Virus record (IMG/VR): IMGVR_UViG_3300025168_000053
Span: 1 to 64,000 of that record
Source: a virus
Direction: 5' to 3' (one strand)
DNA length: 64,000 nt
Shown here: one piece after another, positions 39,687 to 45,881 of the stretch
Position numbering within the stretch: the stretch's first letter is position 1
Layout of the letters: every line of letters starts with the position of its first letter
Made by a program: the position numbers and the translations under genes
The notes under the pieces: generated by a model
Seen by the model: the letters and a program-made list of their open reading frames with translations, nothing else
Told to the model about the DNA's origin: nothing
The model's database searches: none

Positions 39687-40184
39687 ATGGGCGCATTTGA
39701 ACAAACATGGGCGTTTATCAAGTTTGATGATGAATCACCAACGCCTTATTTGAGCAATTCTTGTAAGCGTTGCGAAGAACAATACCCGTTAATGCACGAC
39801 CCCGACATACCCCCTTCAAGTCCCGACTTTCCAATACATGAACATCTCGCAACTTCTATGTGTAAAAAATGTCGCCACGATAAATTATCGGAATTAAAAT
39901 GGACTCACGAAAACCACCCCGCACCAGACGTTATTGGCCTTGATGATCGACGAATGCTTAATCACCTTGTTGATATTGGGAAATTAAAGGATGGGCAAGA
40001 GTCCACACAGAATGAGTTGGACTTTTTGAACACCCCTTGTATGATGAGTCAAACACGGTATGAAAATGACAGGGAAGATTCTTCGAGAGCATGGATGAAA
40101 CCTTTGCCCCCATGCACTTGCGGAGGATGCCCACCTCTAAGGTGGTATGAACGAATGCAGGGAATACCAGAAGGGATGGAATGA
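39687..40184 (+). CDS. Cys-rich accessory protein with N-terminal FEQTWAFIK tag
   Basis: GGTGA SD, CxxC pairs, tag at residues 4-12. Confidence 0.75.
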   Translation: MGAFEQTWAFIKFDDESPTPYLSNSCKRCEEQYPLMHDPDIPPSSPDFPIHEHLATSMCKKCRHDKLSELKWTHENHPAPDVIGLDDRRMLNHLVDIGKLKDGQESTQNELDFLNTPCMMSQTRYENDREDSSRAWMKPLPPCTCGGCPPLRWYERMQGIPEGME

Positions 40185-40185
40185 A

Positions 40186-40791
40186 ATGAGCGATGGGAAC
40201 TGTTATCAATGCGCTTTTCAAGCACTTATGACTGGAAATCCTGATTGGAAAAACCCACGTTTGATTCATAGCGACATAACGCATTCCAAAACAGGTGAAC
40301 CATATTCTCATGCCTATGTTGCTTATGATAAGGAACTTGAGTTTCCTGAACCGATGCCCGAAGAATGGGGTGGGAACATTCCAACAATGCAATTTGTTCA
40401 CGACCAATCCAATTCATTCAAAGGATCAGGCGATATACCACGTATGTTTTATGAAATGAATGCAAAGCCAATACGTGATACAATGCGTGAATACACGCTG
40501 GAACAAATGATGGAACAGGCAATGAAGCATTCACATTACGGACCCTGGCCTAATGAAGAAGCATTTGGAAAATCATGGGATTTGATGAAATCAGGGGTCA
40601 AACGCCTCAATACCAATAAGAAAGTTCCTATGCCCTGCCCTGAATGTAGGGGTCCGATGGAACATCAAGATGGTTATGTTGGTTCAAGTGGCCGTTATGT
40701 TGAACCTGCCTATATGTGCATGGACCCCAAAACAAGTTATTGCGAAGCAAGAAGGCATGATGTGAAAAGTTCATTGAAGGAGATGAAATAA
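40186..40791 (+). CDS. Two-module protein: putative Cys-His-Asp (transglutaminase/papain-like) domain, then tag, then Zn ribbon
   Basis: GNCY...HAYV...HDQS, FGKSWDLMKS, CPEC...C...C. Confidence 0.65.
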   Translation: MSDGNCYQCAFQALMTGNPDWKNPRLIHSDITHSKTGEPYSHAYVAYDKELEFPEPMPEEWGGNIPTMQFVHDQSNSFKGSGDIPRMFYEMNAKPIRDTMREYTLEQMMEQAMKHSHYGPWPNEEAFGKSWDLMKSGVKRLNTNKKVPMPCPECRGPMEHQDGYVGSSGRYVEPAYMCMDPKTSYCEARRHDVKSSLKEMK

Positions 40792-41132
40792 TGCCAGTCC
40801 TCGACCCCCTAAAAGCCGCTTTGACCGACCACCTCCAAACGCTCATCAAGAAGTGTTCACTTGGTTCTGGGGCTTCCGATGCCTCAAGCCGTGATGGAGG
40901 CGCAGGGAATACAAAGATGAGTCAAAATACACTGGTTCAACGCATTGATGATCGAACCATCTCAGTTAGTGCGTTGTTCGATTCGCAATTGAGCAGCGAA
41001 CAGGCGATTACCGAAGTTGTTCTTCATGGGGAAAACCCTCTTGACTCACCATCCTTTAGGGCAACATTCATGCCAATAAACAAGAACGGCACAAATGAAG
41101 TCCGAATTGATATTCTAATGGAAGTGAGATAG
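40791..41132 (+). CDS. Small tail/baseplate-associated structural protein
   Basis: Resembles tail-fibre N-terminal attachment domains (ITEVVL...FMPINK..NEVRIDI). GGAG SD. Confidence 0.6.
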   Translation: MPVLDPLKAALTDHLQTLIKKCSLGSGASDASSRDGGAGNTKMSQNTLVQRIDDRTISVSALFDSQLSSEQAITEVVLHGENPLDSPSFRATFMPINKNGTNEVRIDILMEVR

Positions 41133-41485
41133 TGTCCGATAAAAAATCCGAAGAAAAGAACGATGAAAAGATAGCCCCAGTGGTTGCAGGTGCGGCGAGA
41201 GTCGGAGTTGCAGCAGCAAAGAATCCAGCAGTTCGAGGGGCTGTTGGTGGTGCGGTTCAAGGAATGATGAAGAAACGGATTGATGAACCATTTGAGATGA
41301 CATGGGAATTGATGAAAAGCGACGAGAAGGGCGACAACGCCCCAACCAACCCTGGTCTTTGGTCGCAAGCCAAATCAAAGGCACGTTCTAAGTTCAAGGT
41401 TTATCCATCAGCCTACGCTAACGGTTGGGCTTCTAAATGGTATAAATCCAAAGGCGGCGGCTGGAAGAAAAAGAGCAAGGAGTGA
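41132..41485 (+). CDS. Tagged basic protein (VYPSAYANGW...KGGGW module)
   Basis: FEMTWELMKS tag precedes a Lys-rich module. Confidence 0.78.
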   Translation: MSDKKSEEKNDEKIAPVVAGAARVGVAAAKNPAVRGAVGGAVQGMMKKRIDEPFEMTWELMKSDEKGDNAPTNPGLWSQAKSKARSKFKVYPSAYANGWASKWYKSKGGGWKKKSKE

Positions 41486-43824: not shown

Positions 43825-44969
43825 GCGTGTTGCGAATGAACATAAGTGATATGAACAAAAGCAGCAGGTATTCCAAGCGGTGCGGGATCGAGAAGTGTCA
43901 AATCGCCAGCATTCATAGCGAAATGATGAGGATGAACCAACTTTCCTAAAAAGTTGTTTGCACCGTCAAATACATCCACGCTAACCAAAGGTTCGACCCC
44001 ATCCTCTTCACTTAACAATGGCTTGTAAAGAAGCCCTGCTGGTGCTGCTGCGCCGAAAGGTAAAACCTTTGGCGCACCTGGGGTGAAAGGAATTGCAGTT
44101 GTTTTTGATGTTCTGTGAACGGGAGTTAATTGATATGTTCCACCGCCGCCAGGATGCAAACCAACCCCCACATCGGATTGATAAAATAAGTGAGTTTGAC
44201 CGCCTCCTTGAACTGTGGAAAAGAAACCATTAGGATTTCGTGCAAATAAGACTCCGAGATCGGTGATTGGCAAGTTGGCGGCATTGAAACCTGCGACAAA
44301 ATCATTCCTTAGAGAAGATTCCGAACCGTCGCTATGCTCAATTGCCGACAAAGCAACTGGACCAGGGCGAACAAACACCCTCTTGTCCTCTATGGCGAGG
44401 ATAACAGGCCCAGATGAACCCTTGCCGACTCGAACTGCTGCCAAGACTGTATTTTGTAAGACAAGGTGATTTGAAGGGGATTGAGGGTATAGCCCTGTGG
44501 CAGTATCAACATACGAACCGTAAGTGAAGCCAACATTACTTGGTTTGCGAGGATCAACATAAGCCAAGAGAATTGCCTCATCTCCAGGGTTTGTTCCGTT
44601 GGGTATGGCTGAACCATGATATGTTGATTGATAGTTCGTTGCAGCCGCAATATCCAACACTGAGCCAGAACCGACGTTGAAAAACATTCCATCGAGTTGA
44701 ACTACGCCAGCATCAACATAAAGTTGCGAGGTGCTTCCCAATGTTCCGTTTGGTCGAACACAGCAATTGCCGCTAACAGGGTTGTTTCTATTCGCTTCAT
44801 CATATCGGTTGAGGGTGATCGGAATCACGCCGTTGCCAAGTCCACGTTCAACGTTGTTTGTCAATGATGGGCTGGTAAGGACATCGGAATCACGGAGGCC
44901 ATCGTTTTGATAGGTTGATGCACCCGTAGCCGTTTTTTCATGACCCTCAGCCAGATTGGTGTTAGACAT
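43821..44969 (-). CDS. Probable virion structural protein (tail/baseplate-like)
   Basis: G/S/T/P-rich beta composition with VDAGVVQLDG and LAAVRV...IEDKRVF segments typical of tail-associated proteins. Confidence 0.6.
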   Translation of the reverse strand: MSNTNLAEGHEKTATGASTYQNDGLRDSDVLTSPSLTNNVERGLGNGVIPITLNRYDEANRNNPVSGNCCVRPNGTLGSTSQLYVDAGVVQLDGMFFNVGSGSVLDIAAATNYQSTYHGSAIPNGTNPGDEAILLAYVDPRKPSNVGFTYGSYVDTATGLYPQSPSNHLVLQNTVLAAVRVGKGSSGPVILAIEDKRVFVRPGPVALSAIEHSDGSESSLRNDFVAGFNAANLPITDLGVLFARNPNGFFSTVQGGGQTHLFYQSDVGVGLHPGGGGTYQLTPVHRTSKTTAIPFTPGAPKVLPFGAAAPAGLLYKPLLSEEDGVEPLVSVDVFDGANNFLGKLVHPHHFAMNAGDLTLLDPAPLGIPAAFVHITYVHSQHA

Positions 44970-44973
44970 TCAA

Positions 44974-45354
44974 TCAATCCTCTTCCAATTCCATCAATCT
45001 TTTTATCCTTTCACGCATTTCAACGCTCATGATGTCGCCTTTGTCGTGCATTCGATACTCAGGATTGGGCTTTATGATTTTCCCTGAACCATCTTCCATC
45101 AATCTTTTCATCTTTTCACGCATTTCAACGCTCATGATGTCGCCTTTGTCGTGCATTCGATACGGAGGATCAATCATTTGGGTTTTTCCTGAACCAGCCA
45201 GTGCAGCAATAAGATGAGGCGGCGCACCACCTTTCCCTGCATAGGCATTCATGACCTTGAGTTGTTCTTCGCTCATTGGAGGTTTTAATTCTTCATCATT
45301 CGTGGTTTCCCACCAATCGGCCTTCATCAAATCCCATGCTCTTTGAAAAACCAT
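44974..45354 (-). CDS. Tagged protein with SF1-helicase-like N-terminal fragment and internal duplication
   Basis: Starts MVFQRAWDLMKA (TGATG overlap). ALAGSGKT and YRMHDKGDIMSVEMRE x2. Confidence 0.75.
   Translation of the reverse strand: MVFQRAWDLMKADWWETTNDEELKPPMSEEQLKVMNAYAGKGGAPPHLIAALAGSGKTQMIDPPYRMHDKGDIMSVEMREKMKRLMEDGSGKIIKPNPEYRMHDKGDIMSVEMRERIKRLMELEED
45009..45163. repeat. 50-bp perfect direct repeat with 105-bp period
   Basis: 45009-45058 is identical to 45114-45163. Confidence 0.93.
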
Positions 45355-45881
45355 CAACAATTCCACCTTTTCAATGCTGCACCTTTCGGAGTCATTTTGC
45401 CACCTTTACTGGTCGGACCTTTGACTCCACCCATTCGAGCGCAAAAAGACTTTCGCCTCTTGGCCTTCTTCGATCCAGCCTTGAGTTTGCTTGGTTTAGT
45501 GGTGACTGGGGGCTTGAGATTTGCACCTTCTTCACGCTTGAACTTGGCTCGACCCTTTGCATTTAATCCACCTTTACGGCTATGCTTGTTTGGGTTGTAG
45601 CCGTGAAATGGTTTTGACTTCTTTTTACCTTTGAGTAAAGCATCAACCAATAGTTCGTCGGACTTTGTAAAAGAACGTTTCCTCCATTGCGAAGGTTTTG
45701 TTGCCCTCATCGTTCCGTATGGTGTGCTTTCAAAGCCGCATCCATCGCATTTAGGAGTTGAGCCTTTTCCATTGCATTGACCGCACACGTGCTTTCCTTT
45801 CTTTGCATCGGGGGTTGGCTTTTTCTCACGCCCAATAACGGTTTTGGTTAAGAGGTTGCAGGTATCGCAATCACACGTCAT
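45354..45881 (-). CDS. Zn-finger plus basic KGGLNAKGRA...RRKSFCARM...WNC module
   Basis: GGTGA SD. Modules separated by LLTKT, FTKS and LLKG sites. Confidence 0.8.
   Translation of the reverse strand: MTCDCDTCNLLTKTVIGREKKPTPDAKKGKHVCGQCNGKGSTPKCDGCGFESTPYGTMRATKPSQWRKRSFTKSDELLVDALLKGKKKSKPFHGYNPNKHSRKGGLNAKGRAKFKREEGANLKPPVTTKPSKLKAGSKKAKRRKSFCARMGGVKGPTSKGGKMTPKGAALKRWNC

Follow-up and report, generated by a model that had tools for sequence, protein, structure and literature searches.

A recurrent helix-plus-lysine peptide on unrelated proteins of a marine archaeal tailed virus: a candidate address and release tag for the prohead

Why does one short peptide recur in genes that are otherwise unrelated? 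The question is raised by positions 39687-45881 of the window analyzed here, the 64,000 bases 1-64000 of the virus record IMGVR_UViG_3300025168_000053 (full length 80,261 bp), in which proteins of dissimilar sequence carry versions of the motif F-x-x-x-W-x-L-M-K. Judged by its sequence, this peptide, hereafter the tag, is a short amphipathic helix of 9-12 residues that closes with a lysine. The reading that we favor, with a probability of about 0.55, is that the tag joins an address helix to a release site for the prohead protease of the virus, such that the tagged proteins, or cargo, would be loaded into the prohead, cut after the lysine, and carried into the host.

The eight copies of the motif listed in an earlier, sequence-only reading of this DNA are all found where it placed them, three of them N-terminal, four internal, and one truncated (Table 1). 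Four further copies lie past the window, at genome positions 75641, 76223, 78161, and 78576, giving 12 copies in the genome. A regular expression finds 11 copies in the proteome, compared with a mean of 0.23 and a maximum of 3 in 200 residue-shuffled proteomes, and 20 and 23 copies in two relatives for which shuffling predicts about 0.3; the motif is thus strongly enriched over a shuffled background. A profile built from the copies assigns 5-25 bits to true tags and at most 2.5 bits to all other sequence. Applied to the replication, tail, major capsid protein (MCP), portal, and protease proteins of the genome, the profile finds no tag, in line with the earlier statement that the replication and tail proteins lack it. 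The enrichment, the clean separation by the profile, and the dissimilarity of the downstream sequences bear out the proposal of a real, portable tag on unrelated modules.

Table 1. Tag copies and candidate protease sites in the window (a slash marks the candidate cut).
Position	Strand	Sequence	Gene	Context
16348..16374	+	FDTSWDLMK	16063-16521, 152 residues, head-tail module	internal tag, residue 96; Cys-rich CPxC zinc-ribbon-like segment directly after
39696..39722	+	FEQTWAFIK	39687-40184, 165 residues	N-terminal leader, F at residue 4; profile score 11.8 bits
40564..40590	+	FGKSWDLMK	40147-40791, 214 residues	internal tag, residue 140; between orphan N-terminal and C-terminal CPxC zinc-ribbon-like modules
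41291..41317	+	FEMTWELMK	41132-41485, 117 residues	internal tag, residue 54; first half of DUF5872 directly after
41656..41682	+	FTIAWDYTF, then stop	41482-41685, 67 residues, Cys-rich	truncated tag at C-terminal end; profile score 8.1 bits
41994..42023	+	FEAVWDSIIK	41697-42227, 176 residues	class-2 tag, internal, residue 100; between DUF5872 second half and very basic GRFRGY module
42242..42268	+	FDAAWDMMK	42224-43438, 404 residues, D12-class (Dam-like) adenine methyltransferase	N-terminal leader, F at residue 7
45322..45348	-	FQRAWDLMK	44974-45366, 130 residues	N-terminal leader, F at residue 7; profile score 18.7 bits
10034..10048	+	GSILK/AE	8039-11509, 1156-residue head-module protein	residues 666-670; candidate protease site
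11603..11617	+	DFLLK/S	11552-12895, prohead protease	residues 18-22; end of N-terminal extension
12071..12085	+	YTILK/M	11552-12895, prohead protease	residues 174-178; last strand of fold, border with scaffold-like part; kept in five genomes
12461..12538	+	N-x-N-V-I-K, twice	11552-12895, prohead protease	residues 304-309 and 324-329; otherwise variable scaffold linker
13015..13029	+	TDLLK/ADN	12910-14073, MCP	residues 36-40; candidate maturation site, would remove a 40-residue leader

The tag occurs in two classes. Class 1, F-[DE]-x-[AST]-W-x-[LIV]-[LMIVA]-K, is mostly N-terminal, its Phe being residue 4-7. An M-P or A-P often comes directly after it, which gives the impression of a tag added ahead of an older start codon. 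Class 2, F-E-x-A-W-D-S-I-x-K, is mostly internal, and the stretch before it is acidic and rich in Ser. The constant positions, that is, the Phe, a small residue, the Trp, and an aliphatic residue, are spaced i, i+3, i+4, i+7 and fall on one face of a helix, and the lysine follows the Phe at a distance of 8 or 9 residues. The final residue is Lys in 120 of 123 distinct class-1 copies and in all 15 class-2 copies (135 of 138), and Arg in none. Position 2 is Asp or Glu in 31 of 42 copies, and position 6 is often acidic as well. A short helix with Phe, Trp, and Leu on one face could also serve to target a membrane. The flanks of the tag are acidic, whereas known membrane-targeting helices are basic, and a membrane role leaves the statistics of the lysine unexplained; we regard it as very improbable.

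The tag is widespread among relatives of this virus. IMG/VR contains 246 contigs with an MCP at 76-99% identity, and four long ones, G001-G004, were analyzed whole. By profile, G001 and G002 have 24 tags each, G003 has one, and G004 has six; in three genomes, 11-22 genes, or 13-21% of those called, are tagged, with unrelated sequences downstream. Between 20.1 and 28.4 kb of G002, about 14 of 18 genes start with the tag, most commonly in the form M-T-A-F-D-T-A-W-x-L-L-K, and many of these array genes overlap the preceding gene by ATGA. Such overlaps are seen in the arrays of both G001 and G002 (e.g. L092:4378-7626), together with a GGNGG motif 7-8 nt upstream of the genes. A second clade of 301 contigs, the MCP of which is 63-65% identical, has a variant tag, M-N-P-[FM]-x-x-[AS]-W-x-[LI]-L-K, on small genes that are located, in the three contigs from which placement was read, among the head and tail genes. 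The whole of IMG/VR was also scanned for the exact pattern F-D-x-A-W-D-L-M-K, which gave ten stretches, at least eight of them on contigs whose MCP or methyltransferase similarity places them in this group. On these searches, the tag is seen nowhere outside these marine archaeal tailed viruses, and no published description of it was found, the magrovirus literature included.

The arrays bring up the possibility that the tag is a by-product of duplication or cassette recombination, with the 5' coding stretch acting as a homology patch and the peptide itself without function. Inside the array tags, same-codon use is 0.56 compared with 0.43 predicted from codon usage, which points to recent duplication, and many array genes share ATGACCGCCTTCGACACCGCTTGG. 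Codons are conserved at the constrained residues only, however, and third positions vary while the Phe, Trp, and Lys stay constant, indicating that selection acts on the peptide and not on the DNA. This codon pattern largely refutes the homology-patch explanation. In addition, the tag persists in both clades, the MCPs of which share only 63% identity, as well as at internal positions and in homologues with just 40-50% identity in the cargo part. We give this explanation hardly any credence.

What the tag is attached to varies widely. Most cargo proteins have no family match in Pfam, PHROGs, or NCBIfam, and these searches likewise return no match for either module of the 40147-40791 protein. 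The earlier assignment of a methyltransferase to the tagged cargo is upheld: the 42224-43438 product matches PF02086 of Pfam with an E value of 1.4e-6 and TIGR00571 at 7e-6, the latter below its curated cut-off, and its tag is kept in all four IMG/VR orthologues. The label "Cys hydrolase", on the other hand, finds no support in the three databases, and the "HExxH peptidase" and "kinase" labels are not confirmed by them. The other cargo of the window consists of two DUF5872 halves, the very basic GRFRGY module, and Cys-rich segments. In relatives, the tag of gene 16063-16521 and the FGDCPVC segment that ensues are kept, and the part upstream varies freely.

In one cargo family, the tag is kept in 13 of 13 aligned homologues and is as conserved as the active-site region. 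AlphaFold shows the tag of this family as a detached, low-confidence helix (residues 3-10, predicted local distance difference test score about 53) in front of a confidently predicted fold. In structure, this fold matches Tpt1/KptA best and DarT and toxin ADP-ribosyltransferases more weakly. By these models, the cargo includes proteins with a Tpt1/KptA/DarT-like ADP-ribosyltransferase fold.

Units of tag and domain are rearranged between genomes. DUF5872 is split here over two genes, with profile positions 1-41 in 41132-41485 and 55-110 in 41697-42227 and the Cys-rich 67-residue open reading frame between them. The truncated tag at the end of that frame may be the decayed junction of two units. 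The tag and the N-terminal half of DUF5872, internal here, form a stand-alone 72-residue gene that starts with the tag in L083 (9036-9254) and in G002. Similarly, the tag and GRFRGY module at residue 100 of 176 here stand alone as 85 residues in G001, are N-terminal in a 513-residue gene of G004, and are found at residue 399 of 479 in G002. A cyanophage tblastn match to the 41132-41485 product covers the domain only (query residues 68-97), and the tag at residues 54-62 lies outside it. Since the units stand alone in relatives, the internal junction copies in this genome are best seen as in-frame fusions of N-terminally tagged units. The suggestion of a "plug and play" arrangement is thereby sustained, identical units of tag and domain being fused in one genome and separate in another. 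The proposal that the tag is a leader or a junction element stands in part: both positions occur, but the tag is basically an N-terminal leader, its internal copies arise by in-frame fusion, and there are two classes of it.

On the favored reading, the lysine would be cut by a protease of the virus itself, and candidate sites with the same ending are found in the head proteins. The gene at 11552-12895, directly before that of the MCP, encodes a prohead protease of the HK97 family with a long, scaffold-like C-terminal part. It matches PF04586 (Peptidase_S78) over residues 22-183 with 44.2 bits (cut-off 21) and the HK97 proheadase model TIGR01543 below its cut-off, and it is not of the T4 type; the tag, too, has no sequence likeness to the T4 capsid-targeting sequence (CTS). 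In an AlphaFold model of residues 1-200, the fold is confident at residues 30-178, and residues 1-26, with the L-L-K whose docking in the active site was considered, are disordered. As the sequence-only reading had noted, the hydrophobic-x-Lys ending recurs in the MCP and the protease/scaffold; it is found at the leader boundary of the MCP, at both ends of the protease fold, and in the scaffold linker, where N-V-I-K occurs twice.

The TDLLK of the MCP is invariant in five genomes, which leaves no variation to compare with the end of the tag, and L-L-K or I-L-K followed by [AS]-D is seen in about 120 homologues down to 63% identity. Even HVTV-1 and HCTV-1, haloarchaeal viruses with an MCP at 32% identity, keep the K-A-D-N junction. 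Two reviews of haloarchaeal viruses give no account of processing. The N-terminal extension of the protease differs in the second clade and ends there in P-L-I-L-K/G. In the scaffold linker, a 60-bp duplication (12461-12538) gives P-S-G-N-x-N-V-I-K twice and is kept in five genomes within variable surroundings; the first N-V-I-K is followed by [AQ]-P, resembling the K-[AM]-P found after many tags. The site in the 1156-residue protein reads GS[IL]LK/[AS][ED] in three genomes, DLFK/SD in G003, and DLHK/SD in G004.

A more far-reaching likeness was considered and rejected. In this "split tag" idea, the leaders of the MCP and protease would be lengthened tags of the form [AS]-W ... L-L-K. The Trp part was dropped because in the second clade the MCP has Tyr and the protease has no Trp although the tags keep theirs, and the pattern had been chosen post hoc.

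The protein of about 1150 residues at 8039-11509 is fast-evolving, has no family match, and is located between the portal-side genes and the protease in five genomes; the corresponding position in HVTV-1 (L115:1557-5498) and HCTV-1 is taken by a large "zeta toxin domain" protein. The large protein of this virus may itself be packaged. Three small coiled-coil proteins (5945-7041) separate it from the portal, and the first of them starts with M-F-D-I-I-E-K/M-D-P, which is kept in relatives. The three may belong to the head core or scaffold and be degraded.

A statistical test bears on whether the cargo meets such a protease. Cargo exposed to a protease that cuts after hydrophobic-x-Lys should avoid this pattern, and proteins meant for degradation should be rich in it. 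In the tag-masked cargo segments of five genomes (14,626 residues), [LIMVF]-x-K is observed 129 times compared with 191 expected, an observed-to-expected ratio (O/E) of 0.67-0.68 with z of about -6. The controls show no such depletion: in cargo, the mirror pattern K-x-[LIMVF] has an O/E of 1.02, [LIMVF]-x-R 1.09, and [LIMVF]-x-E and -D 1.19 and 1.33, and in the untagged proteins of the five genomes [LIMVF]-x-K itself has an O/E of 1.13. Of 5000 size-matched sets drawn at random from untagged proteins, not one is below 0.88. Among offsets -6 to +6 from the lysine, strong depletion is seen at -2 only, for each of Leu, Ile, Met, Val, and Phe (0.54-0.79). The avoidance holds separately in G000, G001, and G002 (0.66-0.71) and is replicated in other clade-A contigs (46 observed, 90.6 expected).

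The opposite is seen in the protease-scaffold protein, which is 2.6-3.2-fold enriched in hydrophobic-x-Lys (10-12 compared with 3.5-5.0 expected in the scaffold part, and 9-10 compared with 3.0-3.9 in the protease domain), and in the 5945-7041 coiled-coil proteins (3-5 compared with 1.1-2.0, or 2.5-2.8-fold). The portal has the expected number. Avoidance in cargo combined with enrichment in the protease and scaffold is the pattern predicted for a maturation protease that cuts after hydrophobic-x-Lys, and it argues, indirectly, for such cutting. None of the rival explanations that lack cleavage accounts for it.

One rival that includes cleavage is that the tag is a processing signal only, with precursors or leaders cut after the lysine in the cytoplasm by a viral or other protease and the products left unpackaged. 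The polyprotein-like fusions with tags at their junctions, and the avoidance of the motif in the modules, would both suit this explanation. In most tagged proteins, however, the tag is an N-terminal leader preceded by only 3-6 residues, leaving nothing to separate. A conserved helix with invariant Phe and Trp also exceeds the needs of a protease, and the candidate sites in the MCP, protease, and scaffold show the hydrophobic-x-Lys part alone. Moreover, prohead proteases of the HK97 family act inside proheads (PMC12749128). Processing without packaging is, in our estimation, distinctly unlikely.

The genomic position of the tagged genes links most of them to the structural genes. Of 67 tags, 64 are on the strand of the MCP (binomial p of about 1e-8); in this genome, FQRAWDLMK alone is on the strand that does not carry the structural genes. 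Tagged genes occupy three sites: an array upstream of the terminase block, one gene in the head-tail module (16063-16521 here), and an island after the giant tail protein. The genes of the island are spaced by -4 to +12 nt, and the first of them (39687) starts 2 nt after the gene for the 2511-residue tail protein. The island genes are almost certainly co-transcribed with the late genes.

With the island directly behind the giant tail protein and the tagged genes of the second clade among tail genes, the tag could alternatively load cargo onto or into the tail or baseplate, like the N-terminal packing signals of contractile injection system payloads. The closest cultured relatives by MCP are siphoviruses, though, in which a tape measure protein would fill the tube. 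By the lysine-site statistics, the tag is associated with the protease and scaffold of the head, and one large array adjoins the terminase and head genes. Loading of the tail is improbable.

The large arrays by the strand-switch region resemble host-takeover arrays and bring to mind a different role, in which the tag would dock its bearers to a hub outside the capsid, either a host protein or another viral protein, that gathers accessory proteins without any cutting. A short amphipathic helix is of the kind that fits a hydrophobic groove, no head protein with a matching element is seen, and restriction to one virus group suits a host-specific target as well as a virus-specific one. Left unexplained by such a hub are the lysine that is never replaced by Arg, its position at 8 or 9 residues from the Phe, the oriented avoidance of hydrophobic-x-Lys in cargo with its abundance in the protease and scaffold, and the tolerance of internal, in-frame copies. 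The packing of the island genes straight behind the tail genes does not favor it either. We consider docking to a non-capsid hub unlikely.

The address-and-release mechanism would operate as follows. The helix face formed by the Phe, the Ala, Ser, or Thr, the Trp, and the aliphatic residue would dock the protein onto a component of the assembling prohead, for which the scaffold part of the protease, the inner face of the MCP, or another head-core protein are candidates. The hydrophobic-x-Lys ending would be the cut site of the virus's own S78 prohead protease. Any domain that gained the tag would then be loaded into the prohead, cut free after the lysine, retained with the DNA, and delivered to the host. 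Candidate cargo comprises the proteins with the Tpt1/DarT-like ADP-ribosyltransferase fold, the Dam-like methyltransferase, basic DUF5872/DUF6321 peptides, and zinc-ribbon-like proteins. As cutting would separate the units, it would matter little whether they are encoded separately or in frame, which would explain the polyprotein-like genes of the window. Docking and its partner, cutting, packaging, and injection are all steps that we infer. The broader proposal, that this is a general delivery system in which up to a fifth of the genes encode packaged cargo, as single genes or polyproteins, that has been purged of the protease motif, is tentative, at somewhat less than even odds.

Several observations weigh against this mechanism. 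By the tag profile, neither the MCP nor the scaffold or portal contains anything that resembles the tag. Among the RNA runs listed, none covers positions 39000-46000. Even the cleavage of the MCP after K40 is one that we infer, and the A-W likeness between the tags and the leaders of the MCP and protease fails in the second clade, in which the avoidance of hydrophobic-x-Lys is also weak (O/E 0.86, not significant). HVTV-1, the nearest cultured relative, has neither the tag nor another recurrent N-terminal motif. The large arrays upstream of the terminase adjoin a strand-switch region and could consist of early genes that run in the late-gene direction by coincidence. The 21 tagged proteins of G001 add up to about 6,700 residues, which would be a large load for each head. 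Finally, the gene calls are simple longest-ORF (open reading frame) calls.

The placement of the virus among archaeal viruses, proposed in the sequence-only reading, is backed by its MCP and by a thermosome gene. In the cultured-phage collection, the MCP matches archaeal viruses only, the best matches being the haloarchaeal siphoviruses HVTV-1 and HCTV-1 (32% identity, E values of 1e-44 to 7e-48). The thermosome subunit gene is located just past the window (genome positions 64612-66231, minus strand) and scores 491 bits with the thermosome alpha model NF041082, above the curated cut-off. Both agree with published magroviruses, marine tailed viruses with archaeal-type genes such as the thermosome (PMC5434244). 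A family-B DNA polymerase is present in 26 of 26 original magroviruses, whereas none was identified among the proteins of this genome by family searches that included NCBIfam; the virus is therefore termed magrovirus-like. By its sequence, it belongs to a large group of marine archaeal tailed viruses, and its host is probably a member of the Poseidoniales. The contigs of G001 and G003, both incomplete, do not contain the thermosome gene, and the viral thermosome as a partner of the tag is unsupported, as G001 is rich in tags but has no thermosome gene on its incomplete contig.

On the plus strand, the window encodes the terminase (1443-2879), the portal (4109-5914), the head genes, and the tail genes, of which the last encodes the 2511-residue protein (32150-39685); replication and modification genes follow on the minus strand from about 43.5 kb on. 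The 2511-residue protein is present in all relatives, has 5100-5650 residues in the second clade, and has a weak YQBQ-like match near its C terminus as its sole family match. It probably corresponds to the large LamG-like protein of Poseidoniales viruses (PMC11706807). Adjacent to the tagged gene 44974-45366 is an untagged gene, 45354-45881 (minus strand), which contains DUF6321. Before this domain, its product reads F-T-K-S-D-E-L-L-V-D-A-L-L-K/G, and the orthologue in the relative L083 (12392-12943, minus strand) reads F-P-N-S-W-D-E-P-L-L-V-E-A-L-L-K/G. This segment looks like a lengthened tag from which the Trp has been lost in this genome.

Should the proposed mechanism be true, archaeal tailed viruses would possess a T4-like "load and clip" system that uses a different protease family on a far larger scale. 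The tag would then provide a one-line rule for picking injected effectors from hundreds of uncultured genomes of abundant surface-ocean archaeal viruses. The effector set would include ADP-ribosyltransferase-fold proteins, methyltransferases, and DNA-binding peptides, and would open up the biology of host takeover and anti-defence in the Poseidoniales. With its built-in release site, the 12-residue tag would also be a candidate means of packing foreign proteins into shells of the HK97 type. The statistic on avoidance and enrichment, for its part, can be reused as a sequence-based test of whether a set of proteins meets a given protease.

The best-known parallel is T4. T4 packages the ADP-ribosyltransferase Alt, and ADP-ribosyltransferase-fold cargo is also found here. 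The internal proteins of T-even phages are diverse defence proteins that have only the CTS in common (PMC3012670). Similar to the tag, the T4 CTS, which is borne by IPI-III and removed by gp21, is a short N-terminal peptide on diverse, fast-evolving proteins; these proteins are brought by it to the scaffolding core, its end coincides with the motif that the protease cuts, and the cargo counters host defences after injection (PMC3012670, PMC9024508). The two peptides have no sequence similarity. The T4 site ends in Glu, whereas an S78 protease and a predicted hydrophobic-x-Lys site are found here, and the system described here has an archaeal host, 11-22 tagged genes in each of three genomes, and tags between modules as well, and is known from sequence alone.

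In phage P1, an N-terminal signal of fewer than 30 residues of DarB is sufficient to bring a reporter into the capsid, and DarB is a methyltransferase-containing anti-restriction protein (PMC9024508), reminiscent of the tagged methyltransferase of this virus. The P1 Dar proteins have no common consensus (PMC9024508), whereas one consensus applies to all tagged proteins here. In giant phages (SPN3US and the phiKZ group), the prohead protease cuts many proteins inside the head at a single short motif (PMC7411985, PMC10052503), as is proposed for this virus. Their propeptides, in contrast, are long and mutually dissimilar, with a common cutting motif but no address helix, and these are bacterial jumbo phages with a T4-type protease.

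HK97 shares the S78 protease family with this virus. The maturation cut of HK97 gp5 is at K103/S104 (PMC10275583), and the sequence of the site, T-F-N-K/S, has a hydrophobic residue two places before the lysine, as do all the tags and candidate sites. HK97 differs in having no known set of tagged cargo and in its scaffold, which is an N-terminal domain of the MCP and is here fused to the protease. Encapsulin cargo-loading peptides are likewise short terminal peptides that bring unrelated cargo into an HK97-fold shell, but they are usually C-terminal, are bound in an extended form, remain uncut, and have another consensus, and they serve here only as an analogy; how encapsulins and viruses are linked is discussed elsewhere (PMC13669383). 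Virion-borne anti-defence proteins are known in archaeal viruses (bioRxiv 10.64898/2026.04.28.721311).

The principle, a shared targeting peptide that is removed by a head protease, is therefore already known from T4. What appears to be new by comparison is its occurrence in an archaeal-virus lineage, the combination of this protease family with a Lys-type site, and the sharing of one consensus by 11-22 genes in each of three genomes. Also new are the layout of units in frame, as "beads on a string", and the motif-purging signature in the cargo.

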